A DNA stretch of 64,000 nucleotides. Source: an uncultured Bacilli bacterium (GTDB lineage: Bacteria > Bacillota_I > Bacilli_A > RF39 > UBA660). The stretch covers positions 5,513 to 69,512 of the forward strand of contig CANPVU010000001.1 in NCBI GenBank assembly GCA_947581765.1, in the 5' to 3' direction. The notes beneath the pieces are model-generated. The model was not told where the DNA came from, did not search any database, and saw only the letters and a list, made by a program, of their open reading frames with translations. This document shows positions 1,962 through 64,000 of the stretch, piece after piece; the first letter of the stretch is position 1; every line of letters starts with the position of its first letter. The translations under genes were made by a program, and so were the position numbers.

Positions 1962-1971
1962 ACATACACTC

Positions 1972-2490: not shown

Positions 2491-2501
2491 AAAATCACCA
2501 T

Positions 2502-3620: not shown

Positions 3621-3638
3621 TACTATTCCTCCTAATAA

Positions 3639-4472: not shown

Positions 4473-4488
4473 TTTTTTCCTTTCATAG

Positions 4489-8100: not shown

Positions 8101-8109
8101 TATTTTGAA

Positions 8110-40673: not shown

Positions 40674-41597
40674 ATGATTTATATGAGAAAGAAAAAAGAA
40701 AATAAAGAATATTTAGGATATTATATAAATGAATTTATAAATATATCCAAGATAAGGAATAAGGAGTCTACTTATTCAAATTATTTATATACTATTAATT
40801 CTAGAATGATTGTATTATATAATACTAAGATAAAAAATATAGATATTAAGTTTATAAATGAGTATACTAATTATTTATTTGATAAAGGTTTATGTAGTAA
40901 AAGTATTAAAGATACTTTAATACTTTTAAATGAAATATTAAAATTAGCAGATATACATATTAATATACCTATGCCTAAAGTAATTAAAAAAGAAATTTCA
41001 GTATTTAATGAAGATGAACAAATAGAACTTGAAAAATACCTTTTAAATAGTCCTAATAGCGTTAATTTAGGTATATACCTATCACTTTATACTGGAATTA
41101 GAATTGGTGAACTATGCGCCTTAAAATGGGAAAATATAGACCTTATTAATAATAAGATAACTATTAAAAAAACAATGTTAAGAATTAAAGATACAAACCC
41201 TAATAATAGAAACAAAACTAAAGTAATAGTAGATTCACCAAAAAGTACATCATCTATAAGAGATATTCCACTACCACCTTTTATATCATCTATGTTATCT
41301 AAAATAACTAATATATTACCAGAATACTATTTACTTACAAATAGTATATCTTATATAGAACCTAGATTATTATATAAAAAATATAAACAAATACTTAGTG
41401 AATTAAACTTATCTAAATATAACTTTCATACAATGAGACATACATTTGCTACACGTTGTATAAACCAAAACTTCCCTATTAAAATAGTCTCAGAAATATT
41501 AGGACACTCTAGTGTTAAAATAACACTAGATAGATATGTACATCCTAATTATAATGAAAAAGTAAAAATGATGAATAATTTACAAAAATTATATTAA
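40674..41597 (+). CDS. Tyrosine site-specific recombinase (phage integrase / Xer family), stand-alone
   Basis: C-terminal HTMRHTFATRCINQNFPIKIVSEILGHSSVKITLDRYVH (R...HxxR...Y catalytic box) and an N-terminal SAM-like core-binding domain. Probable start at the second ATG (40683), preceded by GAGGA. Confidence 0.8.
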   Translation: MIYMRKKKENKEYLGYYINEFINISKIRNKESTYSNYLYTINSRMIVLYNTKIKNIDIKFINEYTNYLFDKGLCSKSIKDTLILLNEILKLADIHINIPMPKVIKKEISVFNEDEQIELEKYLLNSPNSVNLGIYLSLYTGIRIGELCALKWENIDLINNKITIKKTMLRIKDTNPNNRNKTKVIVDSPKSTSSIRDIPLPPFISSMLSKITNILPEYYLLTNSISYIEPRLLYKKYKQILSELNLSKYNFHTMRHTFATRCINQNFPIKIVSEILGHSSVKITLDRYVHPNYNEKVKMMNNLQKLY

Positions 41598-46042: not shown

Positions 46043-47590
46043 TTAATAAAGTGATTGTGAATACTCAATTGGTTCATATACAGTTCCTGTAAACCATACC
46101 TCACCTGAGTTTTTATCTCTAACTAAGAATAAATATGGTTTATCAAAAGTTAAATCTATACTTTCTATTGGAACTTCATATAAATAATCAAATCCACATT
46201 TAGAAGATCCTAACCCTTCAAGTGTAACTGGATCTGCTTCCTTAATTCCATCATTTGAAAAATCTACATCTACTTTGTGCTCTATACTATCTAAATAAAC
46301 CTTACTATCTATTAAATTAGATAAATTAGCCTTCTTACTATCAAAAACATCAGTTATACCTAATTTATTTAAATCTTCCTCTAAATTAATTCTAGATAAA
46401 ATATCAAATACTGGAATAGTTCCTTCTACTTTTGTAATTACTCCATCTTTAAAGCTATCTAACTCTATACCTTTAAGATTATTAATTAAATTATTTATAT
46501 CTGAAGAATTAATACCATCAATATATTTTTTCAAACTTACCTTTGTTGGCATAATACCTACATATTGTAATGTAATACCATTATACTCTTTTAAATCTTT
46601 AGCAAATACCTTTACGTTATCATCAGTATAAAACATAAAGTCAGTAGAACTAGTCACATCATCATAACCAATATTAATTTCTTGAAGATATTTATCTACA
46701 TATACTTTTGCAGGCATTTCTTTTGTAGGATCACCAGAACATGATTTTGGAGCACCCTCTTCTAACCATTTTTTATACTCATTAATTACATTTTGTCTTA
46801 TATTTTCCATACCTAAAGAATTAATAATATCATACCTATTAGCTACTGCTGATATTTTTACAGCCTTAGCCTCCATTGCATTATCATTAAACTTTAAATT
46901 AGTATAATCTTTTGCATTTAATGGTCCTATATACTCAAGAAACTTTCTATGGTGATAATTAATAAAATATGGTCTATCAGAATCTTGTATCTTATTTTCC
47001 CAATCCATATCTATAGCAAGTGTATTAAGTAAAACAAAATTCTTATCAGATATATCATCAACCATGTTATCAATTAAATTAAATGTTCTATTTCCAACCC
47101 AACTATTTATTTTATCTGATGTATTAAATGAATCATATATAACATCAGCATCATATTTATCTTTTATTGAACTAATATATTTACTCTTTATTTTATCTTT
47201 TAGGGAATCTCTAACAAATAAAGCATTTACAAAAGACATAGTCTCAGTATTTGTATATCTACCATAATCATAAGTACCTATAACATCAGTTATCTGTTTT
47301 TTACTATTACCAACAGATCCTTCCTGTAACATTTTTAGTGCATACTTAATAGCAATTGGACTATATGCCTTATTCTTCTCTTCATTTTCAAGTTTCAAAA
47401 AATATAAATCAAAATCTTGTAAACTATTACCATTTAATCTATATTTGGAACTTTCTTTATTAATCTTAATTGGGAGCAATAAACTTATCCCTAAAGCTAT
47501 AACAATAAACAATAATAATACAATTACTATTCTCATTATACTATTATATTTGTTATTATTAACAGTTTCAACATTTTGATCTTTTTCCAT
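46043..47590 (-). CDS. Serpin (serine protease inhibitor) with N-terminal membrane anchor
   Basis: C-terminal DKPYLFLVRDKNSGEVWFTGTVYEP matches the serpin signature (PFLFxIR...FxGRVxxP). Internal AIKYALKMLQEGSVGNSKKQI and NALFVRDSL resemble serpin helix A and the s3A region. One transmembrane segment near the N-terminus. Confidence 0.65.
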   Translation of the reverse strand: MEKDQNVETVNNNKYNSIMRIVIVLLLFIVIALGISLLLPIKINKESSKYRLNGNSLQDFDLYFLKLENEEKNKAYSPIAIKYALKMLQEGSVGNSKKQITDVIGTYDYGRYTNTETMSFVNALFVRDSLKDKIKSKYISSIKDKYDADVIYDSFNTSDKINSWVGNRTFNLIDNMVDDISDKNFVLLNTLAIDMDWENKIQDSDRPYFINYHHRKFLEYIGPLNAKDYTNLKFNDNAMEAKAVKISAVANRYDIINSLGMENIRQNVINEYKKWLEEGAPKSCSGDPTKEMPAKVYVDKYLQEINIGYDDVTSSTDFMFYTDDNVKVFAKDLKEYNGITLQYVGIMPTKVSLKKYIDGINSSDINNLINNLKGIELDSFKDGVITKVEGTIPVFDILSRINLEEDLNKLGITDVFDSKKANLSNLIDSKVYLDSIEHKVDVDFSNDGIKEADPVTLEGLGSSKCGFDYLYEVPIESIDLTFDKPYLFLVRDKNSGEVWFTGTVYEPIEYSQSLY

Positions 47591-48609: not shown

Positions 48610-49470
48610 CTATTTTTTAGTACAATCATATTGTAATGCTGTTGCTGAAACACTATCAATATAATGAGCTTTTTTACCATCTTTATCTAGTCCAAAAATA
48701 AATCCATAGTTTCCACTATCTAATGCTACCTCTGTACCAGCTGCATTTGCTTTAGCATTCTTAATTTGATATTGAACATATTTAAATCCATCTTTTTTAG
48801 CTGCAGGTTTTACATTAGATGAAAACTTAGAATAATCTCCAGTTAAAGTAACAGTCATTCCACTTTGAGTCATATCCATAGTTACCTTTTTATCAGTGAA
48901 ATTAATTTTTACACTTCCATTTGTTCCTGTACATTCCCAATCACCTTTTACATTAGATGAAGATTTTCCAGATACCATTACAAATACTATAATTCCAACT
49001 ACTACAGCTACAACTATACCAATAATTAAACCTGTTTTATTATTTTTTTGATTTACAGGTTGAGCAATAGCTCCTGGCATACCATTATTATTAATAGGTG
49101 CCGCATTCATATTTATTTGATTTGCATCTGGCATAGGAACTACTTCAGGTTGTGGAACTGGTTCTGGTGTTGGTTCTGGTGTTGACTCAGGTGCTACCTC
49201 TTGTGCTGGTACTTCCTCAGGTGTAGAAACTGGTTCTGGTGCAGAAACTGGTTCTGGTGTTGTTACTTCACTTGAAGTATCCTCTTCTTTTGGTAAACTA
49301 GTATCTTCTGATACCCCTTCAGTACTTTCTGGCGCTACATTTGATACACTTGAATCAACTGTTGAATTTACATCATTATTATTATTTAAGTTTTGACTAT
49401 CACTACTTGAACTATCATAAATATTTTCTTCGTTATTCATATACACTCCTCCTACTATTAAGAGTATCAT
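48610..49470 (-). CDS. Pro/Glu/Thr/Val-rich single-pass membrane protein of unknown function
   Basis: Acidic Pro-rich N-terminal region (PEPVSAPEPVSTPEEVPAQEVAPESTPEPTPEPVP), one transmembrane segment, and a ~110-aa C-terminal domain with two Cys. Likely start at MNNEEN after AGGAGG. Confidence 0.5.
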   Translation of the reverse strand: MILLIVGGVYMNNEENIYDSSSSDSQNLNNNNDVNSTVDSSVSNVAPESTEGVSEDTSLPKEEDTSSEVTTPEPVSAPEPVSTPEEVPAQEVAPESTPEPTPEPVPQPEVVPMPDANQINMNAAPINNNGMPGAIAQPVNQKNNKTGLIIGIVVAVVVGIIVFVMVSGKSSSNVKGDWECTGTNGSVKINFTDKKVTMDMTQSGMTVTLTGDYSKFSSNVKPAAKKDGFKYVQYQIKNAKANAAGTEVALDSGNYGFIFGLDKDGKKAHYIDSVSATALQYDCTKK

Positions 49471-49481
49471 ATTTTTATGAA

Positions 49482-50753
49482 TTAATCAAATACTTTTTGT
49501 AATTCATCTATATTTTTGATATAAAATTCTTTTCCTAATTTCATATCTCTTATCTTAAATTCTTTATTTTCTACTTCTTCACTACCTAATATTATTACAT
49601 ACCTAATATTTTCCTTATTGGCAAACTCTAAGCTTTTCTTAAGTTTTCTATTACTCATCTCTACATCTACACTATATCCTAAATTTCTTAAAAAAGTAGC
49701 TAATTTTAAACTTTCTATATTAGTATCAAGTGGTATTATGTATATATAATCATTATTAACTATATCCTTATCTTTTAATAACTCATATATAGATGTTAAT
49801 CCAAAACTAATACCAACTGCAGGATAGATATTACCATCATTAATAAACTCTGTTATCATATTATCATATCTACCTCCTCCACCAATACTACAACTTATCT
49901 TATTATTCTTTTCATATACTTCAAATACATTACCAGTATAATAATCTTGTCCCCTAGCTAGTGTTGGACTAAACTTGACATAATCATTTAATTTTAATTC
50001 ATTAATATACATATTTAATTCATTTATCTCTTTTAATCCAATACTAAATTCTTCATTATCTATATTTAATTTATTTAACTGTTCTATATTACAATTAAAA
50101 TAATTTAATAACTCTTCTATATTATTTTTATTTAAACCAATACTTATAAATAAATCATTAAGTTCTTTTTTAGATAATTTATCAAATTTATCTACAATAG
50201 TAATAACTTTAGAAACTAAATTATCACTAATACCACAAGATTTAATTAATCCTCTCATTAAATTTCTACTATTATATTTTATTAATATATCAATATTTAA
50301 TTTATTAAATGCACTAACATATAAACTTATTAGTTCTGCTTCTATCATTGAACCCTTTATACCTACTACATCCACATCACATTGTGTAAACTCTCTATCT
50401 CTTCCTAATTTAACTGGTCCATCTCTAAATACCTTAGCTATCTCATATCTTTTAAATGGTAATTTTATACTATTTTTAGAAAGTGCTATTAATTTAGCAA
50501 ATGGTACTGTTAAATCATACCTTAATCCTAGTTTTCTATTTCCTTGATCAGTTAATTTATATATTTCATTTAATAAATCATTATTTTCATCATATTTATC
50601 ACTTAATATATCATAATATGTAAGTATTGGGGTTTCAACTGGTTTATATCCATACTCCTTAAAAGTTTCTATTAAAACATCATTTATATAATTTCTTATT
50701 ACTTGTTCTTTTGGTAAATAATTATTACCACCTTTTACATTTTCAATTTTCAT
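49482..50753 (-). CDS. hisS: Histidine--tRNA ligase
   Basis: Class II aaRS motifs (LRYDLTVPFAKLIA, FRDGPVKLGRDREFTQCDVDVVG) plus a C-terminal anticodon-binding domain (VIILGSEEVEN). True start at MKIENVKG, preceded by AAGAGGAG. The ORF-track extension covers the leader. Confidence 0.75.
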   Translation of the reverse strand: MKIENVKGGNNYLPKEQVIRNYINDVLIETFKEYGYKPVETPILTYYDILSDKYDENNDLLNEIYKLTDQGNRKLGLRYDLTVPFAKLIALSKNSIKLPFKRYEIAKVFRDGPVKLGRDREFTQCDVDVVGIKGSMIEAELISLYVSAFNKLNIDILIKYNSRNLMRGLIKSCGISDNLVSKVITIVDKFDKLSKKELNDLFISIGLNKNNIEELLNYFNCNIEQLNKLNIDNEEFSIGLKEINELNMYINELKLNDYVKFSPTLARGQDYYTGNVFEVYEKNNKISCSIGGGGRYDNMITEFINDGNIYPAVGISFGLTSIYELLKDKDIVNNDYIYIIPLDTNIESLKLATFLRNLGYSVDVEMSNRKLKKSLEFANKENIRYVIILGSEEVENKEFKIRDMKLGKEFYIKNIDELQKVFD

Positions 50754-50971
50754 ATATACTCCTCTTTCTTTTTTATAAAAAAAGCTATACAGAATCCTGT
50801 ATAGCTTTATATTTATACAGGCAAGCACCACAAATAGCACTTGCCTACGATATATTAATGTCGTATTAACAAGTGCAAAGTATTATGATGATGTCTGTTT
50901 AATAACTGTTTCATAAAATACTTCCCTTTCTTAAATACTAGATTAACACAATATATCATTTTAGTCAAATA
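50754..50971 (-). promoter_or_regulatory. Putative T-box-like leader / attenuator upstream of hisS
   Basis: On the transcribed strand: hairpin GGCAAGUGCUAUUUGUGGUGCUUGCC (contains UGGU) followed by the perfect terminator AAAGCUAUACAG-GAUU-CUGUAUAGCUUU plus a U-run just before the RBS. Upstream in the leader is a CAUCAUCAU run (His codons). Confidence 0.4.
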
Positions 50972-51502
50972 TTATTTAGTTTTAATAGTAATATCTTCAT
51001 CTTCTAATAATTCAGCAATTGCTGAATAATCTTCAGCTAATTCTCCTATTGATGGATTTTCCTCTACTTTATGTTTTAATCCACCATCTTTTTGCCTTTC
51101 TTCAATTTTTTTTATGTACCCTTCTATTTCTGCTGTATTATCCAAATTTTCTTTCTTTTTTTCTGTTACTACTTCTTCTTTATCATAAGTTTCTTTTAAA
51201 GAAACATTTTTATCTTCAATATTTTTAGTATTACAACTACAAAATTCATCTTTAATGTTTAATAACTTATTATATTTTGCAATTAATTCTAAAGAACAAT
51301 TACCTGTTCTAATATAATCTTGCAAATTAATTCCCATTAAAGCTTCATTAACAGCACTCTCAAATTGATGTAGTAAAGATTCTCTTATATTACCCGTATT
51401 TTCAAATTTCATTAGAAAATAATCGGCAATATCACTTAATACGGCATTAATATCTGACCATTTTATTTCTTTTATTTTCTCCGTTGAACGATCCAATATC
51501 AT
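50972..51502 (-). CDS. Acidic hypothetical protein
   Basis: 176 aa, highly acidic C-terminal half, no recognisable motif. Confidence 0.35.
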   Translation of the reverse strand: MILDRSTEKIKEIKWSDINAVLSDIADYFLMKFENTGNIRESLLHQFESAVNEALMGINLQDYIRTGNCSLELIAKYNKLLNIKDEFCSCNTKNIEDKNVSLKETYDKEEVVTEKKKENLDNTAEIEGYIKKIEERQKDGGLKHKVEENPSIGELAEDYSAIAELLEDEDITIKTK

Positions 51503-51684
51503 TTTATCACCAACTTAATTCTATCATTATTAAAAACAATTATCAAGGATTAAGGTAAAATTAATAAAAAAAAACAAACCCTAAATTAGAAATTAAGATT
51601 TGTTTTTTTGTGTCTTAGAAAAAATTAAGAAGGAATAATGTTTTCTACTTTATTCATATTCCACATTTTGTAAGAGTATTCAAA

Positions 51685-54600
51685 CTAAAATATAATAAAT
51701 GGTCTTGTTTTACTACCTGTACCACTTCTTATTTCAATATTTTTTCCTAAATAGAATACTGGTCTTATATTAAACCAAGTATCTGCTAAAAAACCTCTTG
51801 CATTCTTGTCTCCAGGATGAATGTAGTATATATAAGCAGAATATATTGTACTATCGTAATCTTTTCTTGTAATTGTCCATTCACTATAAGGTGTTGATAA
51901 ATAACTATCACAATAAATTTTTTGACAATTTTCACTACCCGAACCATCATTATAAGCATAATAATAATCACTTAGATACATTAAGCCAAACTTATCTCTT
52001 ACAATTTTTTCTTTAATCTCTTTTTTATAGACAGCCTCTCCTGTTTTATCATCACTTGTAACACTACCATAATACCACGTTGCAACATCTATTTTTAGTT
52101 TCCAATACTTATCCAAAGTGTTTGAATAAGTTTCATTTAAAACTTTATAAATATCACTTACTGGATATTTGCATCTATCACCATTTTTTCCACAACTTTC
52201 AATAGTATATCTTCTATTCCATTGATATTGACCAAAGGTTTCTGCTTTCATAAGCTTAAATTTACCTCCTTCTGTTACACCAATGATTCTAAAAAGATAT
52301 TTATCAGATTGATTTAAACACTCATCAACATCCTTAGTACCAAAACAGATATAATTTTCTACATCAATACCAGAATAACGATACATACCTGATTTAAGAG
52401 TTTTACTCAATCCTTTTGGTTCATACTCCATTAACTTCTCTGCTTTACCTGTAAAATCCTTTTTTATATAAGAAATAGTATCCTTCGAAACAGAAGAATA
52501 AACACCTTCATCATTCTTTAGATAAGCATAATAAGTATAGGTATTATAAGAATTAAAATTCAATTGTTCCGTAATTTCTTTTTTACCCTGAGTATCTTTC
52601 CAAACACATTTACTCTTATCTTCCTCTGTTACTAAACAGTATTGTGTAACATTATCATCTTTCCAAGAAAGATGATAAGAAACAGTGTTCGAGAAAGTAC
52701 TTTCCGTCTTAGGATCATCACCTAAATAGAATTCTTCTATTACTGGAGCTTTGATTTCATCATACTGAGCATAATAATCAATATCACCAGAACTCAAAGT
52801 AGCTTTCATCTTACCTAACTCGTCTGTAGAAATTTTTCCAGACTCTAGTTCTCCTTCATATTCCCAATTATTATTAAAAATATATTTCTTTTCTGTAGCA
52901 TTATTCAAATACTTATAATTAGAACCATCCTCTTTAAACGAAGTTGGAACAAAATATTGTTCATTATTAATATAAGCAATATTTATATAAGACCTACCCA
53001 TAGTTATATAATCAACAAAGATTAATCTAGAGTTTTTATAGTCTTTATAATAATGAATATAATCTTTAACTTGTTTACTTTCTTCTCCTGTACCATCTTC
53101 TTTTCTTGTTATATTATAAATATATTCTTGTCTATTTCCACCTAAAACATTCATCGTAGCATCACGAGTAGCTAAAACTGTTGGACTACCATAGATCTCA
53201 TCTTGATATGAGATATTGTTAGCATATAAAGTACCCTTTAATAAAATTGCTGCATTTTCATTAATTGTAACTGTACTAGCCATAAGATCTTCATCACTAA
53301 TTTTTAATGTCTTAGTATCAATTGTTTCTTTATTTTTGACATAGAAATTATTTGCCGTCAAAGTAGCACCTTCACCAACTTCTATACCAATTGTATTTTT
53401 ATCAACTTTAGCTTTCCCCGACACTTTATCATATTCAGATGGTTTTAATACATCAATTTTTAATGTTAAATCCTTGATAACAACACTTCCAGATGTAATA
53501 TTAAAGACTGATTTGCTATTACTTATTTCAGATGTTATTTCTGCATTTCTACCATCAATAACAACGTCTCTAGAAATATTCAAAGGTTTAGATATAGTTC
53601 CTTTCCAATCTTTAATAATAATTTCTTTATTACCAGATAAAGCCTTTTCTAGTTCATCTTCATTGCTTACAAAAACAAAGTTTGTCATAAATTTTGCTGT
53701 ATAGTTATCTGTATTTGTGTTTTTTTCATTTTTTACACCATCTGCCAATGTAAAGTTGATAATAAATGATTTTTGATGTAAGTTTTCTAATGTAGCTTTA
53801 TCAAAAGGAGTTGGAGAAAGTAAACTTTTAAATATACTTTCTAGCCCTTCTTCAACTTTTCCACTTGTTAATGGAAGACCACTAATTTGAATACTTTCAA
53901 CATTTTTTACTTCAATAAACTTTTGTAATGCAGATGCCACCTTCTTCAAATTTTCAGATAATGATTGATCTTTCTTTAGTATTGCAATTTCTAATTGTGA
54001 ACCTTCTTTTACATAAGCAGAAATATTATCACTCGTAATTTCAGAAGCAAAACTTTGAATCATTTTATTGGTATAAACAACAGGTTGATATTTTGCTTTT
54101 AAGGTAATATTAGATGTTATTGTTTCTTCATCAAAATTAAACTCTTCATCTTCACAGACATTGTTATCACATTTATACCATCCAATAAATTCGTACCCAT
54201 TATAGTCATCTGTACTAGTTTTTGAAGCATTTCCAGGATTTGCTACTTTTTCTCCATGTTTTACTTGAGCATCTCCGATTTTTATTCCTCCATCTGTATC
54301 AAATTTAACGGTATAAACTTTTGTTTCCCATTTACCAATGACCGTCGTTTCTAATTTTGAAAATTTGTAATTTGTAAGATCAATTTGTTTATCATCTTCT
54401 TGTAAAAACCATCCTTTAAAGTTATACCCCTCTTGTTCTTCTGTTGGAATTTGCTCTTTCGTTAATTGATTTAGAGCATTAGCAAGTTGCGTTTTCTTTC
54501 CTAAAACAAAATTATCATTGGCTTGATTATCAATTTGGCCTTTAAAATTAATTCTTAAAGCGTCTTCCCATTTTGCTTTTAAAGTAATCGTTTTTGAAAG

Positions 54601-55440
54601 CTCATCTTGGCTTAATTCCAATTTTTTCGTAAAATCAAAAGCAGTCGCATCATCTGTTGTAGAATCATACCAATACCTAAAAATGTATCCTTCTTTTGGT
54701 TTTGGTTGAACATTTGCTAAATCATTAGGTGTAATATCTGGATAAGTGTATATCTTCTCTTTCTCACCTTCCTGGATATCTTCTTCAAACTGAATTTTTA
54801 CATTCTTAGCTCCCCACTTTTGCTTCAAAGTAATATCTTTAGTAATATTTTCTTCATCTACATCAAATAATTGATCATCCTCTGTATTATACCAACCTAA
54901 AAATTGATAATTTTGTTTCAAATCAACATTTGGTCTTATTGCTTTATGTCCTTCAATAATTTCATGTCTTTCTAATTCTTTTCCATTTTCATCTTGAAAA
55001 ATAACTGTATAAATATTATTTAATCGATTATAATCAATATATTCTACTTCAAATTTTGTAGCATTATTAATTTTATTTTCCCCGATTAAATTCGCACCAA
55101 CATACCAATCGGTAACATCTCCATAGCTATCGGTATGAGCTAGTATTTGATAAACACTCATTTTCTTATAAGCTTCTGTTCCTCTTACTTTTTTATCTGT
55201 TTCTGAAATATTAATAGAATGAGCTGCAAGCATAAAATCTTCTGTATTCAAATTATTTTTTTCAACATAACTCATGGTAAAAATATACTTTCCAACAACG
55301 TAAAATGATTCGGCTTCTGGATTTTCTTGTAAAACAAGTTCTCCCACTGTCTGTAAATCATACTCTTTTGCAAAAGCATTAATGATACCAATTAAAAATA
55401 CAATGAAACTAAAAATTATATATTTTCCTACTTTTTTCAT
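51685..55440 (-). CDS. Large secreted surface protein with Listeria-Bacteroides (Flg_new) repeats
   Basis: Signal peptide MKKVGKYIIFSFIVFLIGIINAFA. Five or more Flg_new-type units (FLGWYNTEDDQLFD, GYIFRYWYDSTTDD, GYNFKGWFLQEDD, YTVKFDTDGG...GYEFIGWYKCD). The large ~800-aa C-terminal region is unassigned. Confidence 0.6.
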   Translation of the reverse strand: MKKVGKYIIFSFIVFLIGIINAFAKEYDLQTVGELVLQENPEAESFYVVGKYIFTMSYVEKNNLNTEDFMLAAHSINISETDKKVRGTEAYKKMSVYQILAHTDSYGDVTDWYVGANLIGENKINNATKFEVEYIDYNRLNNIYTVIFQDENGKELERHEIIEGHKAIRPNVDLKQNYQFLGWYNTEDDQLFDVDEENITKDITLKQKWGAKNVKIQFEEDIQEGEKEKIYTYPDITPNDLANVQPKPKEGYIFRYWYDSTTDDATAFDFTKKLELSQDELSKTITLKAKWEDALRINFKGQIDNQANDNFVLGKKTQLANALNQLTKEQIPTEEQEGYNFKGWFLQEDDKQIDLTNYKFSKLETTVIGKWETKVYTVKFDTDGGIKIGDAQVKHGEKVANPGNASKTSTDDYNGYEFIGWYKCDNNVCEDEEFNFDEETITSNITLKAKYQPVVYTNKMIQSFASEITSDNISAYVKEGSQLEIAILKKDQSLSENLKKVASALQKFIEVKNVESIQISGLPLTSGKVEEGLESIFKSLLSPTPFDKATLENLHQKSFIINFTLADGVKNEKNTNTDNYTAKFMTNFVFVSNEDELEKALSGNKEIIIKDWKGTISKPLNISRDVVIDGRNAEITSEISNSKSVFNITSGSVVIKDLTLKIDVLKPSEYDKVSGKAKVDKNTIGIEVGEGATLTANNFYVKNKETIDTKTLKISDEDLMASTVTINENAAILLKGTLYANNISYQDEIYGSPTVLATRDATMNVLGGNRQEYIYNITRKEDGTGEESKQVKDYIHYYKDYKNSRLIFVDYITMGRSYINIAYINNEQYFVPTSFKEDGSNYKYLNNATEKKYIFNNNWEYEGELESGKISTDELGKMKATLSSGDIDYYAQYDEIKAPVIEEFYLGDDPKTESTFSNTVSYHLSWKDDNVTQYCLVTEEDKSKCVWKDTQGKKEITEQLNFNSYNTYTYYAYLKNDEGVYSSVSKDTISYIKKDFTGKAEKLMEYEPKGLSKTLKSGMYRYSGIDVENYICFGTKDVDECLNQSDKYLFRIIGVTEGGKFKLMKAETFGQYQWNRRYTIESCGKNGDRCKYPVSDIYKVLNETYSNTLDKYWKLKIDVATWYYGSVTSDDKTGEAVYKKEIKEKIVRDKFGLMYLSDYYYAYNDGSGSENCQKIYCDSYLSTPYSEWTITRKDYDSTIYSAYIYYIHPGDKNARGFLADTWFNIRPVFYLGKNIEIRSGTGSKTRPFIIF

Positions 55441-55459
55441 TTCTATCTCCTAAACTACT

Positions 55460-56839
55460 CTATTGATAAGATACTGTTACCTTATCAATAACGACATCCT
55501 CTATTTTTATCGATGCTGTTTTTACTTTTTCATCAATTTCATCCATTGCTGCAAAGAAATCTGCAAACTTTTTAGTACTACCTCTATAAATAATAGAAGT
55601 AAATCCTGTCCAAACTTTTTTATTTTTATAAACGGTTAAATGATAACCAACAGGAACTTTATAATTGTTATATTTTTTAGCAAATACAAGTTCATAAAGT
55701 GTTGTAACCGTAATTGTTTTTTTATCCGAATAATTTCCATCTTTGGTCGTAACTGTAATCGTTACTTCTCCATCTTGAACTCCAACAACTTTTCCATTTT
55801 GATCGACAGTTGCGATTTTATTATCACTACTTTCCCATCGAACATCCTGGTTTGTTGCATTTTTTGGGTCAATAATTGCAGTTAATTGTAAAGTCTCACT
55901 GACATAAACACTACTTCCTCCGTCAATTTTAACACCTTTAACTGGAATCTTCTTTTCAGGAGCAGGCGTAGGTTTTGATGCTGGTTTAGATTCTGGATTA
56001 GTTTCTGATTCTGAAGAAGAACCTTGATTTTTAGACGGACTCATATCTGCTTTAACTGTGATATTTTTCTTTGCTGTTTTATTTCCATCTTCTGTAGTAA
56101 CTGTAATCGTAACTTTACCTGCCTTAATTCCATGCACACGTCCAAATTCATCTACTGTAGCAATTTTTTCATCACTACTTGTCCAAACAACAACCTTATT
56201 CGATGCATCTTCAGGTTGAATATTAGCACTAAGTTGAATAGTTCTTCCAACAGTAACCTCACTAGCTCCACGAATTGATACACTCATAACACTTACTAAA
56301 TCATCTGTAACTGTGACTTCACAAGTATCTTGATACTTTCCATCTTCTGTCATAACAGTGATGGTAACCACTCCTATTTTTAAAGCTGTAATTTTACCAT
56401 TCTCATCAACACTTACTATACTGCTATCACTACTTGTCCACTTCAATTTTTGTTTCGTATTATTCTCAACATCAAAGGTATGTGTAGAGCCTGGATTTAA
56501 AGATAATTCCTCCAAGTCCAAATGAACTTTCCTTTCTTCTTCTTTTATCCATCTAGCCTTTAAAATAATATCGGAGGTAATTTTCGTTTGAAAATCAAAT
56601 AGCTCATCTTCATAATACCAACCATCAAAGATGTATCCTTCTTTTATAGGATCTTCAGGTTGAGAGACTCGACCATTTTTTCGAACAGTGATGCTATTAA
56701 TAGTACTTCCACCATCCGTATCAAAAGTTACTTCATATTCTTTTGTTTTGCCCCAAAACATAAAAAACAAAATCAAGAGAATAATAAGTATTCCCAAAAT
56801 GATAAGCAAAATATTTCTTTGCTTCTTTGAAATCTCCAT
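55460..56839 (-). CDS. Membrane-anchored surface protein: Flg_new repeat plus three Big_2 (Ig-like) domains
   Basis: N-terminal TM. YEVTFDTDGG...GYIFDGWYYEDELFDF (Flg_new). Three ~85-aa repeats ending VTITVMTEDGKYQD / VTITVTTEDGNKTA / VTITVTTKDGNYSD (Big_2-like). Confidence 0.6.
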   Translation of the reverse strand: MEISKKQRNILLIILGILIILLILFFMFWGKTKEYEVTFDTDGGSTINSITVRKNGRVSQPEDPIKEGYIFDGWYYEDELFDFQTKITSDIILKARWIKEEERKVHLDLEELSLNPGSTHTFDVENNTKQKLKWTSSDSSIVSVDENGKITALKIGVVTITVMTEDGKYQDTCEVTVTDDLVSVMSVSIRGASEVTVGRTIQLSANIQPEDASNKVVVWTSSDEKIATVDEFGRVHGIKAGKVTITVTTEDGNKTAKKNITVKADMSPSKNQGSSSESETNPESKPASKPTPAPEKKIPVKGVKIDGGSSVYVSETLQLTAIIDPKNATNQDVRWESSDNKIATVDQNGKVVGVQDGEVTITVTTKDGNYSDKKTITVTTLYELVFAKKYNNYKVPVGYHLTVYKNKKVWTGFTSIIYRGSTKKFADFFAAMDEIDEKVKTASIKIEDVVIDKVTVSYQ

Positions 56840-57519
56840 ATCTTACTCCTTCCTACTTTATATATACAATATACCATGAATGGGTACTTATTTACAAGGC
56901 AATTTACTACTTTTTTTGGTCTTATAAAGATCTAAATTCAATTGTTCATCATTATGAATATAAAGAAAAACAATTCGAACAATATTATAATTTTCTTTGA
57001 CATTTTAAAGTCAAATTTCATTTTGAACTCCCTGTAATATAACAAGATTATAATTTTTTTCAGTAATAAGGAATATACACATAAACAAAGGTATTAAAAA
57101 GAATTAAGGAACTCTTAGACGAAAGTCAATTAAGATATGTTTTCAAAAATTAAGAGAACTTTTAGACATAAAAAAACAAACAGATAAAAATATATCTATT
57201 TGTTAATTTACCAGATTATATACTTATATATTAAGTATTATAAAATCAACTTAGAAACTGGTTAAGAAACCACTACTATTAACTATCTATATATTCCTGT
57301 TAATAATTAAAGACTCTTATTAGAGTTCAAAATACTTATTATACAAATATTATAATATGATAAAATTCAGGATAAACCTTTCATTTTAAATTTATCATTT
57401 ATTTAAAATAAATGCAAATACATATAATTTATACCACTTATAATTTTTTTTTATAACATTAATGCTCATTGAAAAAAATAACAATTTATGATAGAATTTT
57501 TATGATAGGAGGATAGAAT

Positions 57520-58458
57520 ATGGGGACTGAAAATAACAATAATAATCAAACAAATGAAACAAACCAAACAAATCAAGTAAATGAAACTACTAAAGTAATA
57601 AAAAAGCATCATGGACCGCTTTATTGGGTAATTGTAGTAGCAGGTGTTGCATTCATAGTTGCAGCAAGTATTAATATTGGTGAGAAACTTGGTAAATTAG
57701 CAAGTGGTGAGACTGACTCTAGTACAAAAACTGAATCAAATAGTAATTCAAATTCTAATATAGAAAGTAACAGTAATGTAGAAAATAATGTATCAAATAA
57801 TGAATTAACAGATACTCAAAAAACTGATTTATCAGAAAAATTAGCATTATTAGTTGGTAGTAACTATAATGGAAATAAATTAATTGATAATGCAACTATA
57901 AATTCTTATTTATTTACTACATCATTAGATGAAACACAAAAAGCATATATCATAACTCGTATAACTGGATCTACACTAGCTAATTTAGATAAAAATAATT
58001 TTAAATTTAACGAAGAAATAGAACAAAGCGAAATAGATAGCCAAGATGGTCAATATAGAGTAATAAACAAGGGTGATTATGATACAAATTATAAGAAGAT
58101 TTTTGGAACTTCACCAACTTCATATCCAAGAACCCCTGCTTGTCCAAGTTATGTTTTTGATACTAATTCACAACGTTATATATCTATAGGAGCATGTGAT
58201 GTTGCTATTAATAGTGGATTAGCATATATTGATGATATTAAATTAGAAGGTAATAATGCTATTGTAAGTGTATATGTAGGTTCAAAATTTGATAATAAAA
58301 TATATAATGATTACCTAAGATTTAATGAAACTGATAAAACAGTTGATGCTACTACTATAACAGAAGAAAACAAAACTCAATTTGCTAAATATAATTTCAT
58401 ATTTGAAAAATCAACTGACGGAAATTACTACTATAAATCAACACAAAAAGCAAGCTAA
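57520..58458 (+). CDS. Membrane-anchored hypothetical protein with Asn/Ser-rich linker
   Basis: Asn-rich N-terminus, TM (LYWVIVVAGVAFIVAASI), S/N-rich low-complexity linker, ~200-aa C-terminal domain with Cys residues. Confidence 0.45.
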   Translation: MGTENNNNNQTNETNQTNQVNETTKVIKKHHGPLYWVIVVAGVAFIVAASINIGEKLGKLASGETDSSTKTESNSNSNSNIESNSNVENNVSNNELTDTQKTDLSEKLALLVGSNYNGNKLIDNATINSYLFTTSLDETQKAYIITRITGSTLANLDKNNFKFNEEIEQSEIDSQDGQYRVINKGDYDTNYKKIFGTSPTSYPRTPACPSYVFDTNSQRYISIGACDVAINSGLAYIDDIKLEGNNAIVSVYVGSKFDNKIYNDYLRFNETDKTVDATTITEENKTQFAKYNFIFEKSTDGNYYYKSTQKAS

Positions 58459-58478
58459 AAGAATCGAAAGATTCTTTT

Positions 58479-59326
58479 TTAGTTTAAATAAATCCTTACT
58501 GTTTCACCTTCTAATATCTTAGTTCCTTCTACAGGTGATTGATATATAACTTTACCACTACCTTCACTTTTTACATTATATCCTTTTAATGTTTTTTTAG
58601 CTTCACTTAAATCCATACCTACTACATTAGGAACAGTTAAATATTTTTTATCTAGATATGTATATTCCTTTTCTATACCATTTTTATCTTCTTTTATATC
58701 TAAAACTTCTATTATTGAATTCATTACTGACTTTGCTATAGGTGCTGCTACTGTACCACCATATTGAGTAACACCTTTAGCATTATCAACTGCAACATAA
58801 ACAACTACTTCTGGATTATCTGCTGGTAAAATACCAATAAATGAAGTAATGTAATTTCCAACCATATATTTTCCATCACTTACTTTTTGAGCAGTACCAG
58901 TCTTACCACCAACTCTGTAATCTGCTATATACGCATTATGTCCTGTACCTTTAGCTACAACACTTTCAAGTGCATATCTAACCTTACTACTAGTTTCTCT
59001 ACTAATTACATCCCTAACCTTAGTAGGAGTATTTTGAAGTACTACTTGATTAGTTTCTGGATCATTTACACTTTTTACAATATATGGTTTATATAATGTT
59101 CCTCCATTAACAGCAGCACTAACTGCTGTTACTTGTTGTATAGCAGTAACTGATACACCTTGTCCAAATGCTGTTGTAGCAATTTCTAATTCTCCTATTT
59201 TATCTTCATTAAAAAGTATTCCGTTTTCTTCACCACTTAACTCTATATTAGTTTTTTTACCAAATCCAAAGTTTTTTATATATTTAAACAATTTCTCTTT
59301 ACCTAATTTAAGTCCTATATTTACAA
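58479..59326 (-). pseudogene. 3' fragment of a class B penicillin-binding protein (transpeptidase C-terminus plus single PASTA domain, SpoVD-like), cut at its 5' side
   Basis: NTGFVNIGLKLGKEKLFKYIKNFGFGKKT...ATTAFGQGVSVT...GGKTGTAQK... plus one C-terminal PASTA domain. The frame is open back to an in-frame TGA at 59327-59329. There the PBP similarity stops abruptly, corresponding to the conserved SSN(T/V)G motif region. The N-terminal ~400 aa are missing. Confidence 0.65.
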
Positions 59327-59360
59327 ACCCTGTATTTCAAGGATTAAACCAAGAGATACT

Positions 59361-60950
59361 CTAATCCATATTAAAATTTAATTTTAAATTTTCTCTTTTA
59401 TAATTAAATATTATTTCAAAATTAACATACTTTCTATCATTATTTATTTTACTAACAAATACTTTATCTATAAAAAGATTAAAATACATACCTATATTAT
59501 TTTTAATATTCAATTTTTCATGTAATACAGATTTTATTTTTTTTAATAAATTTTCATTATATTGTTTTTTACAGTCTATACTTAATTTATTTTTTAAATT
59601 TAATATTTCATTTTTTATACTAATATTTTTTTCATTAAATTCATCATATGTAATAATATTTTTTAAAACCATATCAAATATTTTATCTTTATATTTTTCT
59701 TGTTCTTTTATTTTATTTTTTATATCATTTACATCATCATATTCATTAATTAAATTAATATAGTCATTAGAAATTAGATCAATTAATTTTATTTTATGTT
59801 CTATTTCATTTTCTAATATTTCTGAAAAAAAATAATCTAATTTTTTTTCATATAGTCTAGGAGTAATACAACCTTTTAGTCCATGTCTTAAATATTCATT
59901 GCATTGCCATACAGGATTACTTTTTCTTTTACCACTTGCACACCTAATAAATGTTTTATTATGTTCAATACAATATATCTTAGATGTATATTTTTTATTT
60001 TCTATATATATTTCTTTATTTAATACATTTTTATTCCATTTATTACATCTTTTACATAATAAGCTATTAGCCTTATTCCATAATTTTTCATCTACTATTG
60101 ATGGAACATTACCTTTATTATCTTTATATATTATCCACTCTTCTTTTGGTTTCATTACCTTTTTATGAGTTTTATAATCTTTAACCTCACTCATATTAGC
60201 AGTATACCAACCCTTATACCTAGGATTTTTTATCATTTTTTTTAATGTAGTATCACTAAATACATTACCTTTCCTTGTATAATACCCCCTACTGGCTAAT
60301 ATCTCACCAATCTTTCTAAGTCCATATTTTTCAGAAGCATACAATTCATATATAATTTTAACTACCTTAGATTCTTCATTATTAACACTTAATTTGCAAT
60401 CTTTCTTATCATAACCATAAATACCTCCTCCACCAACTTTTCCATCCTTAATACTCCTCTTAATACCAAATTTTACCCTTTCTGATAATTTTCTTACCTC
60501 ATCTTGTGCCATACTAGCCATTAAAGTTAATCTAAACTCACTATCAGGATAAATTGTATTAATATTATCAGATATAAAATAAACAACTACACCATACTTT
60601 AATAAAAGCTCAGTATAACTTATACTATCAACAGTATTACGTGCAAACCTAGATACCTCCTTAGTTAAAATTAAATCTATCTTTCCACATCTAGCATCCT
60701 CTATCATCTTTAAAAATTTTTCTCTTTTATAAACTTGAGTACCACTTATACCATAATCATTATAACCACAAACACAATTCCAACTTTTGACACTAGAAAT
60801 CATATCACAAAAATACTTTTTTTGATTTTCTAATGAATTTAACTGGTCATTCTTATCTGTAGAAACACGTCCATAGTATGCTACATTCAAATTCATATCA
60901 AAAATTGTTTTTCCCAATTTTAATTCTTCACGTGCCTTTGCTATATCCAT
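59361..60950 (-). CDS. Large serine recombinase (resolvase/integrase family)
   Basis: N-terminal VAYYGRVSTDKNDQLNSLENQKKYF (catalytic Ser in the RVST motif), then a recombinase domain, zinc-ribbon-like Cys cluster (CIEHNK...C...CNEY...C) and a C-terminal coiled-coil. 529 aa. Confidence 0.8.
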   Translation of the reverse strand: MDIAKAREELKLGKTIFDMNLNVAYYGRVSTDKNDQLNSLENQKKYFCDMISSVKSWNCVCGYNDYGISGTQVYKREKFLKMIEDARCGKIDLILTKEVSRFARNTVDSISYTELLLKYGVVVYFISDNINTIYPDSEFRLTLMASMAQDEVRKLSERVKFGIKRSIKDGKVGGGGIYGYDKKDCKLSVNNEESKVVKIIYELYASEKYGLRKIGEILASRGYYTRKGNVFSDTTLKKMIKNPRYKGWYTANMSEVKDYKTHKKVMKPKEEWIIYKDNKGNVPSIVDEKLWNKANSLLCKRCNKWNKNVLNKEIYIENKKYTSKIYCIEHNKTFIRCASGKRKSNPVWQCNEYLRHGLKGCITPRLYEKKLDYFFSEILENEIEHKIKLIDLISNDYINLINEYDDVNDIKNKIKEQEKYKDKIFDMVLKNIITYDEFNEKNISIKNEILNLKNKLSIDCKKQYNENLLKKIKSVLHEKLNIKNNIGMYFNLFIDKVFVSKINNDRKYVNFEIIFNYKRENLKLNFNMD

Positions 60951-61129
60951 ATATCTTTCCTTTGTATATCATCCATTTTATTAATTAAAATATTTTGCAT
61001 TTTACTATATATTTCATATGGTATAACTTCTTTTTCATATAACTCATTATTAAATTGCATCCTTAGTTTTAGCATAATATAATCTTTTGGTAATTTTCTT
61101 GAATTAATATATTTATCATTACCATTCAA
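60941..61129 (-). CDS. Small hypothetical protein directly upstream of and overlapping the serine recombinase
   Basis: 62-aa ORF whose stop overlaps the recombinase start. Its position fits a recombination directionality factor or small regulator, but there is no sequence support. Confidence 0.3.
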   Translation of the reverse strand: MNGNDKYINSRKLPKDYIMLKLRMQFNNELYEKEVIPYEIYSKMQNILINKMDDIQRKDIWI

Positions 61130-61268
61130 AATAATCCCTCCAATTAAGAATATTTAATTTAGAAAAAAAAAGAACAATTAATTATTGTTATATATTTGTG
61201 ATTTTTAAATATTTATTATGAAAAAAGAGCTAACGATTAATTCGTTAACTCTAATTCATTTTTTTAGA

Positions 61269-64000
61269 TTAAATAGCTTCGTATACAGCTTCAAATACTT
61301 GTATTGTAACATTTTTTATTTTCTCTTCAGATACTTTCCAACCAACAAATTTATATCCATCTTTAGCTTTTGGAGCTGTCATTTCAATTTCATGAATTTC
61401 TGCTCTTCTACCTTCAGTAATGCTTTCTTGGCCACCATCAAAGCCTTCGCACATATTTAAATCACATTTAAACTTTGCCCACCATATTATAGATGACTCA
61501 GCATTATTATGTTTTTTTAACCATTCTTGAACATTTTTATCATTGCTTACTTTAGCAACTACTTTATTTTCAGTAGAATAATATTCATTAGACTTAATAG
61601 ATGATAATTTAACAACTTGTTTTGGTGTTAACATTTCACCTGTTGATAACTTATTTGATGATTCTTCATCTTTTTCATAATTTGCTTTATAGTATGACCA
61701 AGAGAAACCATCTACAGTTAAGTCATATTTCTTCCATCCAACAAAATGATAACCCTCTCTTGCTTCTGGTGCATCAACTGTAAGTTCTGTTCCACCTCTT
61801 CTACTTTCTGTTAATTTATCAGAACCATTAAATCCTACACACTCGTTTAAATCACAAACAAATTGAGCGAAACTTACATAATGATGACAACCTTCATATT
61901 TAATAGTAAGCTTTCCATTTTCATTTTTTACTATATTAGTCCAAATGCCATCTTCTGGTTTAGAACATTCATGGTCTTTTTTTTCAGTAGACTGGTTTAA
62001 TTCTTTAACATCAGCTAATTTTTCTTTTAATAATAATGTTGAAAATTCAGTTTCTTTATCTTCTTCATAAACAGCTTCATAACCATAAACCTTATATCCA
62101 TCGTCTAAAGCTTTTATAAGATAACGTTTCCATCCTGCAAAGTGATAACCATTTTTTGCCTCTGGTGCTGTAATAGTTATATCAGAATCCCCTCTTCTAC
62201 TCAAAAGAATAGATTCTTGACCATCAAAACCATTACATTTAGTTAAATCACATTTAAATTTTGACCACCAAATTACAGAATAATCATTATATCCTTTATG
62301 TTTAGATAAAAACTCTCCTAAACTATCTTTTGAATCAATAGTAATTTCTTCTTCATCAGAATAATTTTCCTCTTTAACATCAGAAATTTGAGATTCAAAA
62401 GTTAAAATTTCATCTTCAGATAATACAAGACTATCAGATTCAACTACTGAATCATTTACTTTTGGAGTTACCTCCTCTGTCTTTTCATCTTTTTCATAAA
62501 CAGCTTTATAGCTTTGAACAGTTATTTTACCATCTTTATCTATGGCTACTTCACCTAAATATTTCCATCCAACAAATTTATATCCTTCTTTTGCTGCTGG
62601 AGCAGTCATTTTAATTTCAGAAATTTCTGCTCTTCTACCTTCAAGTAAAGTTCCTGTTTTTCCTTTTTCAAGGTGATTATCAAATCCTTCACATTCATTT
62701 AAATCACAACTAAATTGTGCCCACCATATTATAGATGATTCATGACCTGGATTTTTTTCTAGCCACTTTTGTATACGGCTATCATTTTTAACATTTACAG
62801 AAATCTCTTCAGCTTCGATAAGTTTTCCTTCACTTTCTTCTTCATCTGATTCTAATGAATCAAATAATTCAGAACTTAATGTAAATGAATTATCTCTATA
62901 TTCAACGGCTTGATCAAAAATTTGTGGATTTTCAAATGATGGTTCTGATGACTCCTCTGTCTTTTCATCTTCTTCATAAATTGCTTCATAGTTTCTAACA
63001 GTTACTTTGCTAGTTCCAATTGTTGTAGTACTTTTTTTCCATCCAACAAAATGGTAACCGTCTTTCGCTTCTGGAGCAGTCATTTTAATTTCAGAAATTT
63101 CTGCCCTTCTACCTTCTAGTAGCGTATCAGTTTTTCTTGATTCAAGATGATTATCAAATCCTTCACACTTAGTCATATCACAACTAAATTGTACCCACCA
63201 AATTACACTTTGTTTTGGATATTTTGGATGATTCTTGAAAAATTCTTTTAATTCTTCATCGTCATCAACACTTACTGAAATTTCTTTACCTTCAATAAGT
63301 TCCTCATCTTCAGTTTGATCTTCACTTGATTGTGATGAATTAGGTGCTGCTTCTTTTACTGTGAATGAATTGTTATTATACTCAACAACATCATCAAATA
63401 CTTCTGGAACATCAAATGGTAAATTTTCTGATTTTGGAGTTACCTCCTCTGTCTTTTCATCTGCTTCATAAATAGCTTCATAACTTTGAACAGTTACTTC
63501 ACTCTCTCCAATTGTTGTAGTACCTTTTTTCCATCCAACAAAATGGTAACCATCTTTTGCTTTTGGAGCTGTCATTTCAATTTCAGAAATTTCTGCTCTT
63601 CTACCTTCAAGTAATTTATCAGTTTTTCCTTTTCCAAGATGATTATCGAATCCTTCACATTTATCTAGGTCACAACTAAATTGTACCCACCAGATAATAT
63701 TGGCATCACGTCCAGAATGTTCTTTTAACCATTCTTGTACATAGCTATCGCTTTCAACACTTACTGTAACTTTTTCATCTTTAATTGTATCTTCTTCAAC
63801 TGATTTTGAAGAGCTATACAAACTACCATTTAATGTAAATGAGTTAGATTCATACTCAAATGCACCATCAAACATTTCTGGAGTTTGTTCTTTATCTTCT
63901 TCATAAATTGCTTTATAGCTTTGAACAGTTACTCCACTATTTCCAATTGTTGTAGTACCTTTTTCCCATCCAACAAAATGGTAACCTTCTTTTGCTTCTG
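61269..64000 (-). CDS. Giant tandem-repeat surface protein (Flg_new-like repeats with a conserved Cys pair), 5'-partial
   Basis: At least 6 tandem units of ~150-190 aa. Each has (I/V)IWW(V/A)QFSCDLxxCEGFDNHL...LLEGRRAEISEIxMTAPxAKDGYHFVGWKK...YEAIYEEDEKTEE and is separated by acidic linkers. The reading frame continues to the window end. The DNA repeats are also near-identical (e.g. CCATCCAACAAAATGGTAACC recurs). Confidence 0.65.
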   Translation of the reverse strand, partial: EAKEGYHFVGWEKGTTTIGNSGVTVQSYKAIYEEDKEQTPEMFDGAFEYESNSFTLNGSLYSSSKSVEEDTIKDEKVTVSVESDSYVQEWLKEHSGRDANIIWWVQFSCDLDKCEGFDNHLGKGKTDKLLEGRRAEISEIEMTAPKAKDGYHFVGWKKGTTTIGESEVTVQSYEAIYEADEKTEEVTPKSENLPFDVPEVFDDVVEYNNNSFTVKEAAPNSSQSSEDQTEDEELIEGKEISVSVDDDEELKEFFKNHPKYPKQSVIWWVQFSCDMTKCEGFDNHLESRKTDTLLEGRRAEISEIKMTAPEAKDGYHFVGWKKSTTTIGTSKVTVRNYEAIYEEDEKTEESSEPSFENPQIFDQAVEYRDNSFTLSSELFDSLESDEEESEGKLIEAEEISVNVKNDSRIQKWLEKNPGHESSIIWWAQFSCDLNECEGFDNHLEKGKTGTLLEGRRAEISEIKMTAPAAKEGYKFVGWKYLGEVAIDKDGKITVQSYKAVYEKDEKTEEVTPKVNDSVVESDSLVLSEDEILTFESQISDVKEENYSDEEEITIDSKDSLGEFLSKHKGYNDYSVIWWSKFKCDLTKCNGFDGQESILLSRRGDSDITITAPEAKNGYHFAGWKRYLIKALDDGYKVYGYEAVYEEDKETEFSTLLLKEKLADVKELNQSTEKKDHECSKPEDGIWTNIVKNENGKLTIKYEGCHHYVSFAQFVCDLNECVGFNGSDKLTESRRGGTELTVDAPEAREGYHFVGWKKYDLTVDGFSWSYYKANYEKDEESSNKLSTGEMLTPKQVVKLSSIKSNEYYSTENKVVAKVSNDKNVQEWLKKHNNAESSIIWWAKFKCDLNMCEGFDGGQESITEGRRAEIHEIEMTAPKAKDGYKFVGWKVSEEKIKNVTIQVFEAVYEAI

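Follow-up and report, generated by a model that had tools for sequence, protein, structure and literature searches.

We found that a gene of the spoVD type, encoding a class B penicillin-binding protein (PBP), is split into at least three pieces in the genome of an uncultured Bacilli bacterium (GTDB lineage RF39, UBA660; assembly GCA_947581765.1), being cut in the codons of its SxxK and SxN motifs by two independent, non-phage integrative elements. The site-B (SxN) junction lies in a stretch of 64,000 nucleotides (contig CANPVU010000001.1, positions 5,513 to 69,512), referred to here as the window. The pieces of the interrupted gene remain under purifying selection, and related species carry elements at the same positions of the same gene, each position with its own clade of large serine recombinases. 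With a probability of about 0.6, we consider that these elements leave by a regulated and precise excision similar to that of the skin element, at a new target gene, spoVD, and with several sites and elements per gene.

The window contains the last piece of the gene (“exon 3”; Table 1), which starts with the Asn of SxN and includes KTG (GGKTGTAQ) and a single PASTA domain. On the minus strand, from 59336 down to 58482, it translates as NTGFVNIGLKLGKEKLF...GGKTGTAQ...RIYLN, with the stop codon at 58479-58481. Pfam identified the Transpeptidase domain (profile positions 109-298/299) and one PASTA domain, and the NCBIfam model TIGR02214 (spoVD_pbp) was matched at positions 351-634/636 with 337.9 bits, while the identity to an uninterrupted relative (P0002) was 84%. 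The frame 5' of this piece reads SISWFNP* and has no PBP homology, as an earlier sequence-only reading of this DNA had noticed when it placed all PBP homology downstream of an in-frame stop. Some of its measurements need correction: the TGA is located at 59337-59339, ten bases away from the 59327-59329 given then; 21 bp, not 35, separate it from the stop codon of the recombinase gene (59361-59363); and ca. 350 PBP residues, instead of ca. 400, are absent from the locus in the window. The same arrangement, with identical sequence, appeared in six contigs of independent ENA and Logan assemblies, which indicates that it is not an assembly artefact.

The part of the element beyond window position 64000 was read from an identical metagenome contig (L001; ENA ERZ27249221 NODE_364), which matches window 49361-64000 with 100% identity over 14,640 bp and continues for another 6,950 bp. 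The element has a size of 8.8 kb (L001 2795-11614, corresponding to window 59337 to ~68156), is inserted within the SxN codons, and at its far end adjoins a middle PBP piece of ~55 codons (L001 2609-2794), GATFKIITLAAALEEKLIDLDNDHYHDSGSVKVGGATIHCWKHGGHGSQTYLEVVENSCN. The left junction (attL) reads GAAAACTCTTGTAAT / CTTTCATTAGGACAAGAGATACT and the right one (attR), inside the window, AGTATCTCTTGGTTTAATCCTTGAAAT / ACAGGGTTTGTAAAT. The arms of the element, CAAGAGATACT and AGTATCTCTTG, are inverted repeats flanking a shared AAT; on the minus strand, the attR arm AGTATCTCTTGGTTTAATCCTTGAAAT repeats the attL arm CTTTCATTAGGACAAGAGATACT, located on L001 past the window end, imperfectly and in inverted orientation. 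When the two host halves were joined in silico, the result, ENSCNTGFVNIG, was in frame and resembled the DNA of intact alleles such as L008. The protein formed by the middle and last pieces, ...EVVENSCNTGFVNIGLKLG... (...VVENSC-N-TGFVNIG...), is identical to the uninterrupted P0002 across the junction. The predicted products of excision are a rejoined attB, GTAGTAGAAAACTCTTGTAATACAGGGTTTGTAAATATAGG, and a circular attP, GGTTTAATCCTTGAAATCTTTCATTAGGACAAGAG. The far end on a 100%-identical contig and the in-frame join uphold the earlier proposal of a PBP gene interrupted by an element with a recombinase at the junction. That reading also expected the other element end and the 5' part of the gene beyond the window, and an intact PBP after joining the halves. 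The element end was indeed there, 8.8 kb away and beside the same gene, and the middle and last pieces join in frame and match P0002, but the first piece of the gene was not recovered.

The middle piece begins at ...GATFK, the SxxK active-site motif, and it is in these codons that the second recombinase element sits. On the 5' side of the middle piece, L001 encodes an unknown protein of 442 aa, a prenyltransferase of the UbiA type, and the end of a 562-aa large serine recombinase leaving the contig; this partial recombinase groups with those of site A (see below). The best N-terminal fragment candidate for the first piece, P0183, is located on an unrelated contig, and a scan of JGI metagenomes with the 442-aa cargo protein provided one locus, also unrelated.

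To place this gene among its relatives, we surveyed 80 related RF39-like loci, taking one genome per species (GTDB), among which the source species is not represented. The gene was intact, with about 635 codons, in 57 loci, cut by a contig end in 3, and interrupted in 19, while in the other one (L056) the SxN codons are lost to a frameshifting deletion of 35 nt. Interruptions were limited to three positions, SxxK, SxN, and FGQG-VSVTP: site A, within the SxxK codons (TTTAAAAT), was occupied in 8 species, site B, within those of SxN (TGT-AAY), in 9, and site C, in CCAATACA just past FGQGVSVTP, in 7. Five species have two elements. All three gene pieces of L060 lie inside 10 kb, and both L060 and L004 can be rebuilt to ~610-635 codons without stops. 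In a close relative of the source genome (L086), sites B and C are both occupied, the contig starting within the site-B element. The 16 complete recombinases fall into three clades, one per site, and every completely sequenced element contained a recombinase matched to its site. Regulated gene integrity is recognized where at least two independent elements with integrases of a tight clade disrupt the same domain at the same position (PMC7192596); here, three clades occupy three positions, with 4 to 8 members each, in different species and with different cargo.

The deletion in L056 (L056:3440-3700) lies between short GGTT repeats, and the SxN codons that it removes are the site-B attachment site. 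It could correspond to a true pseudogene, an assembly error, or immunity to site-B elements. Two other interpretations were rejected. Searches with fragment and N-terminal queries, for which the best 120 matches were all short, seemed to indicate that the clade has no intact homolog, contradicted by the 57/80 genomes with an intact gene; fragment queries evidently favoured fragment-sized targets. This type of bias can mislead on the existence of intact copies, and intact genes of the same identity do exist. The division of the gene into 205 and 433 aa in L003, considered as a fourth site or a two-gene arrangement, is due to a run of N in the scaffold.

The assignment of the gene to the SpoVD type, also made in the sequence-only reading, was confirmed with the full-length relative rebuilt from L004 (70% identical), which scored 727.9 bits with TIGR02214 (cut-off, 688). 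The gene order in L003 is mraZ, rsmH, ftsL, a 786-aa PBP2B-like gene, the spoVD-type gene, and mraY, to which L004 adds, downstream, a SEDS gene barely passing the spoVE model TIGR02615 (452.7 versus 448.8 bits). The vegetative paralog PBP2B was uninterrupted in 27/27 loci. The named relatives are “Candidatus Faecisoma,” Coprosoma, and Pelethosoma, together with metagenome-assembled genomes (MAGs) labelled as Bacilli, Tenericutes, or Mollicutes bacterium. Faecisoma and Coprosoma belong to the GTDB order RF39, family CAG-822, and it is through these named relatives that we placed the source lineage in RF39. The source is a gut bacterium of low GC content, with 24.9% in the window and 24.6% in the Faecisoma type genome, and the complete chromosomes of the clade have 1.2-1.5 Mb. 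A comparative study predicts a reduced but workable sporulation programme in RF39 and reports spoVD as reduced or absent (PMC10868615), which may be explained in part by split genes missed by orthology-based annotation. Ten contigs with the RF39-type gene cluster (L026, L030, L039, L041, L044, L050, L060, L063, L064, and L066) had been deposited under unrelated names (Muribaculaceae, Ignavibacteriales, Oscillospiraceae, and Vescimonas coprocola), pointing to mis-binning or mislabelling of public MAGs.

The gene adjacent to attR, lying 24 bp inside it and pointing at the junction, encodes the 529-aa large serine recombinase that had been described before. The protein has the Resolvase (PF00239) and Recombinase (PF07508) domains, a zinc ribbon (Zn_ribbon_recom, PF13408; 25.1 bits, just below the 25.3-bit cut-off), and the N-terminal catalytic motif YGRVST with the nucleophile Ser30 (YGRVS(30)T), i.e., the features that define large serine recombinases. 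It matches the integrase family PHROG 95, and the nearest solved structures to its catalytic domain are 3g13 and TnpX, both from clostridial transposon recombinases. The match to the XisF model was weak (78 bits versus a cut-off of 375).

All the complete recombinase genes examined are full-length and, in 16/16, a small open reading frame (ORF) directly precedes the recombinase gene in the same orientation. It has a core of 48-68 aa, with a motif that can be approximated as h-x-h-E-h-x-h-h-h-N-x-x-L-Y-x-K-x-h-I-x-x-x-x-Y. A profile built from this family matched recombinase-adjacent positions alone in 1.44 Mb (six-frame translation), and only 27 cluster representatives were found among 1.84 billion proteins. 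Profile searches against Pfam, PHROGs, and PDB gave only a sub-threshold match to SHOCT and spurious helical-repeat matches, with no solved relative. Large serine recombinases require a directionality factor to excise, and such factors have no common sequence motif; among those proven for sporulation elements, CD1234 has 72 aa and SprB (tagged) runs at ~8.5 kDa. Given the adjacency in 16/16 cases, the conservation (omega of 0.19 between the source genome and L086), and a size like those of CD1234 and SprB, the product of the small ORF is a candidate recombination directionality factor.

In the window, this module of small ORF and recombinase is located at the far end of the element, behind a terminator-like hairpin with a T-run (Table 1), and an equivalent structure precedes the small ORF in other elements of sites B and C. 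A conserved succession of GTTCTTTTTT, ~15 nt, ATAA(A/T)CTTAA, and a GGAGG ribosome-binding site also precedes the small ORFs of these two groups (window 61130-61215; L086, L083, L018, L039, and L077); this stretch includes a terminator-like hairpin and showed no match to the consensus of sigma-70, sigma-E, or sigma-K. In four site-A elements (L083, L015, L033, and L072), the module begins 50-150 bp past the first gene piece and on the same strand, and in L083 and L015 there is only the att arm between this piece and the small ORF. With the module so close behind the first piece, we infer that it would be transcribed from the spoVD promoter, which favours a link of the module to the expression of spoVD. 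The recombinase ORFs of site C and one of site B extend 25-60 nt over the right junction into the host gene (L086:4943-6592, L018:14213-15892, L039:5363-7024, L077:11612-13273, and L060:16900-18654), so that the C terminus of the recombinase would change upon excision. In the site-B element of L083, the recombinase and small ORF (L083:6021-7983) are found beside the left junction instead of the right one; given the near-palindromic attachment arms, the entire element may be reversed, which would bear on the central dinucleotide used.

We found no internal stops or frameshifts in any piece of any interrupted allele. Comparing the source genome and L086, both with an orthologous site-B module, omega was 0.076 for the last piece (synonymous divergence [dS], 0.37) and 0.137 for the preceding one, versus 0.43 for a neighbouring host gene and 0.23 for the recombinase. 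The 23 interrupted alleles compared with their nearest intact ones had omega values of 0.016-0.23, indistinguishable from intact-intact pairs (median pN/pS of 0.143). These data fit a gene that is rebuilt and used, and they are also compatible with recent insertions. Recombinases at one site are often more alike than the SpoVD proteins of their hosts (82-86% identity among those of site C and 95% between the site-A recombinases of L011 and L060), and the dS between the occupied allele L080 and the empty allele L078 was only 0.077, which indicates that the elements spread horizontally and turn over.

This mobility also fits plain insertional inactivation, a less probable alternative in which the elements would have knocked out spoVD in lineages that are losing the enzyme or do not need it, the insertions being recent and the gene never usefully rebuilt. 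Within a site, the recombinases share 82-95% identity between hosts with ~70% SpoVD identity, the L080-L078 divergence is small, and the deletion in L056 suggests that the gene can be lost. Gut lineages often lose sporulation, one tool scored RF39 as non-sporulating, and searches 5' of the small ORFs found no sporulation promoter. On the other hand, purifying selection is strong across the clade and equal in interrupted alleles. The site-B module shared by the source genome and L086 has a dS (0.6 for the recombinase) at least as high as that of the host pieces (0.37-0.47), and yet these pieces keep omega values of 0.08-0.14. Moreover, a quarter of the species are interrupted, several of them by two elements, with no disabling mutation in the pieces, and the full-length recombinases with their conserved small partner ORF are as expected of a maintained excision module.

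The elements range from 2.7 to >10 kb and have nearly all their genes oriented as spoVD. Their cargo includes Fic, AbiEii/AbiEi toxin-antitoxin, helix-turn-helix regulators, UbiA, GNAT, response regulators, and Flg_new surface proteins. The 8.8-kb element encodes a 206-aa Cys-rich protein, a DUF6512 membrane protein, a Flg_new surface protein of 1804 aa, the 62-aa small ORF, and the recombinase. The gene of the surface protein, complete on L001 (4268-9682), contains internal repeats of ~480 bp that are 76-88% identical. Other Flg_new / Big_2 surface proteins (1251 and 459 aa; window 51685-56839) are encoded just downstream of the last PBP piece, apparently in the host backbone. No match to introns or other RNA families was obtained with Rfam, and no tRNA genes were found; an explanation at the RNA level (intron or other RNA element) was rejected for lack of Rfam matches.

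A prophage or an integrative and conjugative element (ICE) beside a decayed PBP paralog, or a chimeric assembly, would also place a recombinase at this junction, and large serine recombinases are common in prophages and ICEs, PHROGs assigning this one to an integrase family. We regard this as very improbable. No phage or conjugation families appeared among the 25 commonest of the 87 Pfam families detected in 131 cargo proteins, the 8.8-kb element has no relaxase, type IV secretion, or coupling-protein genes, as an ICE would, and its PHROG matches were restricted to the integrase, with none to capsid, terminase, tail, or lysis genes. The nearest recombinases in viral contigs were 43% identical and had no spoVD pieces or junctions alongside. 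The PBP fragment is not decayed (no stops or frameshifts and low omega), and a chimera is at odds with the identical arrangement in six independent contigs. For the same reasons, namely, the cargo and the strong purifying selection on the pieces, the prophage or ICE that inactivated a PBP, put forward as an alternative in the earlier reading, is not supported.

Under regulated excision, a developmental cue would bring in the small protein as directionality factor, and the recombinase would then carry out the attL x attR reaction at the shared AAT core. The element would depart as a circle, restoring the frame across the SxN codons, and the second element would do likewise at SxxK. spoVD is a mother-cell gene in B. 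subtilis, and we infer, by analogy with skin/sigK and SPbeta/spsM, that excision would take place in the terminally differentiating mother cell, where SpoVD would be needed for cortex synthesis. The forespore germ-line chromosome would keep the elements, and the mother cell is the only type of cell where their irreversible loss would cost the lineage nothing. spoVD would be a safe and highly conserved landing site, from which elements could spread horizontally among related species.

Several observations weigh against regulated excision. Neither of the excised forms (empty attB or circular attP) was observed, and the source genome did not yield the first piece of the gene, the look-up of an 868-aa ORF and the search with the C terminus of the second recombinase being without match. 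The regions 5' of the 16 small ORFs contained no match to the sigma-E or sigma-K consensus, and sigma-70-like matches in the window were fewer than in shuffled sequence. The site-B recombinase of L083 is on the opposite strand, and many insertions may be too recent for decay to show. Sporulation in RF39 is itself a matter of disagreeing published predictions, with a machine-learning study scoring these genomes 0%, and among the 27 of 56 window ORFs scanned for protein families, no sporulation gene besides the spoVD type was identified.

These doubts about sporulation leave room for a reversible or conditional switch, in which the PBP would be vegetative or stress-related and the elements would excise and reintegrate in a subpopulation, as in Listeria comK. 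Sporulation of RF39 is so far a prediction, the genomes of the clade have merely 1.2-1.5 Mb, no sporulation-type promoter was found, and purifying selection on the pieces demands some route of expression. Still, we judge a switch of this kind improbable: the gene passes the SpoVD equivalog threshold and is found where spoVD belongs among the division and cell-wall genes, close to a SEDS gene that scores as spoVE; a gene split by two or three elements is harder to rejoin reversibly, with every circle kept, than by one-way deletion in a terminal cell; and the cargo showed no genes for replication or maintenance. An extended version, in which RF39, bordering the wall-less Mollicutes, would be non-sporulating and up to three orthogonal pairs of recombinase and small protein would lock and unlock a peptidoglycan transpeptidase reversibly or conditionally, seems to us just as doubtful. 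If true, the switching of a cell-wall enzyme by mobile elements in vegetative populations would be a new type of regulated gene integrity, outside terminal differentiation.

Table 1. Location of the main features of the interrupted spoVD-type gene and its site-B element in the window
Feature	Position	Strand	Basis and remarks
Last piece (“exon 3”) of the spoVD-type class B PBP gene	58479..59336	-	285 codons and stop; translation, Pfam, TIGR02214
attR junction	59312..59360		Comparison of attL, attR, and uninterrupted alleles; host half-site ends at the shared AAT (59334-59336)
529-aa large serine recombinase, site-B (SxN) clade	59361..60950	-	Pfam, PHROG 95, clade clustering
62-aa ORF	60941..61129	-	ORF list; overlaps the recombinase start codon
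Terminator-like hairpin and T-run	61226..61252	-	Consensus scan; 3' of the surface-protein gene and 5' of the small ORF/recombinase module
Cargo gene, 3' 2.7 kb, 1804-aa repeat-rich surface protein (Flg_new / InlB B-repeat)	61269..64000	-	Pfam; runs off the window end

Other regions of the window deserve mention. A 307-aa tyrosine integrase gene (40674-41597) lies at the edge of a long polysaccharide-synthesis region, beside a Bac_transf priming transferase and LytR_cpsA_psr, and this capsule-type locus could be part of a mobile island itself. At 46043-47590, a 515-aa protein ends in a serpin domain, a type seldom found in bacteria, and has as neighbours a LysR regulator, a non-specific endonuclease, and an acyltransferase. 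Finally, two LicD and two cytidylyltransferase genes, glycosyltransferases, and a radical SAM/SPASM gene (468-9309) suggest a phosphocholine- or teichoic-acid-like decoration of a surface polymer.

If regulated excision is confirmed, the cortex transpeptidase would join the few mother-cell genes that are restored by rearranging the DNA. The layout is unusual in having three fixed sites in the three most conserved motifs of the gene. For RF39, a group in which sporulation is disputed, metagenomes would provide a culture-free, in situ readout of differentiation through the ratio of rejoined attB reads to attL/attR reads. The three related and site-distinct recombinases, with defined att sequences and candidate directionality factors, would also be material for genome engineering.

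Natural intervening elements have been described for sigK, spsM, spoVFB, spoVR, and gerE, with further candidates such as prkA. In the literature searched, we found none in spoVD or any PBP gene, only a laboratory off-target insertion of ICEBs1 in spoVD. The closest parallel is skin in sigK (B. subtilis SpoIVCA; C. difficile CD1231 with the 72-aa CD1234), where an element with a large serine recombinase also splits a mother-cell sporulation gene, with the recombinase at the element end, a small accessory protein of ~50-70 aa, and a precise join that restores the frame. However, the target of skin is a sigma factor and not a PBP, and the spoVD elements use three alternative sites, each with its own recombinase clade, reaching up to two or three elements per gene, and carry non-phage cargo. 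Their small ORF adjoins the recombinase gene (overlapping it in the window), whereas in skin it is separately placed, and the excision and its control by sigma-E and SpoIIID, proposed here, have been shown for skin. SPbeta in spsM (SprA and SprB) shares the large serine recombinase with a small directionality factor, the rebuilding of a mother-cell gene by excision during sporulation, and att sites with short inverted repeats, in SPbeta around a 2-nt crossover. It is, though, a full inducible prophage of ~134 kb, very different from elements of 2.7 to >10 kb without phage genes.

The gin element in gerE (B. cereus ATCC 10987) is, like those described here, not a prophage, consists mostly of recombinase genes, and targets a sporulation gene, but it represents three recombinase genes in one element at one site, in contrast to one recombinase per element at separate sites in many species. 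The heterocyst elements of nifD, fdxN, and hupL (XisA, XisF, and XisC) also involve several deletions needed in a terminal cell, and XisF is a large serine recombinase; nevertheless, phylum, cell type, and targets are others, and the window recombinase falls outside the XisF equivalog. Tn4451 (TnpX) and Tn5397 (TndX) are small mobile elements with a large serine recombinase and accessory cargo, to which the nearest solved domains (3g13 and TnpX) also point, but they have relaxed or different targets and are not known to rebuild a host gene, unlike the strict use of three fixed positions in spoVD. The class of mechanism is known, and what is new is the target gene, the three-site layout with multiple elements, the recombinase clades that are each tied to one site and have a small partner in common, and the uncultured host lineage.

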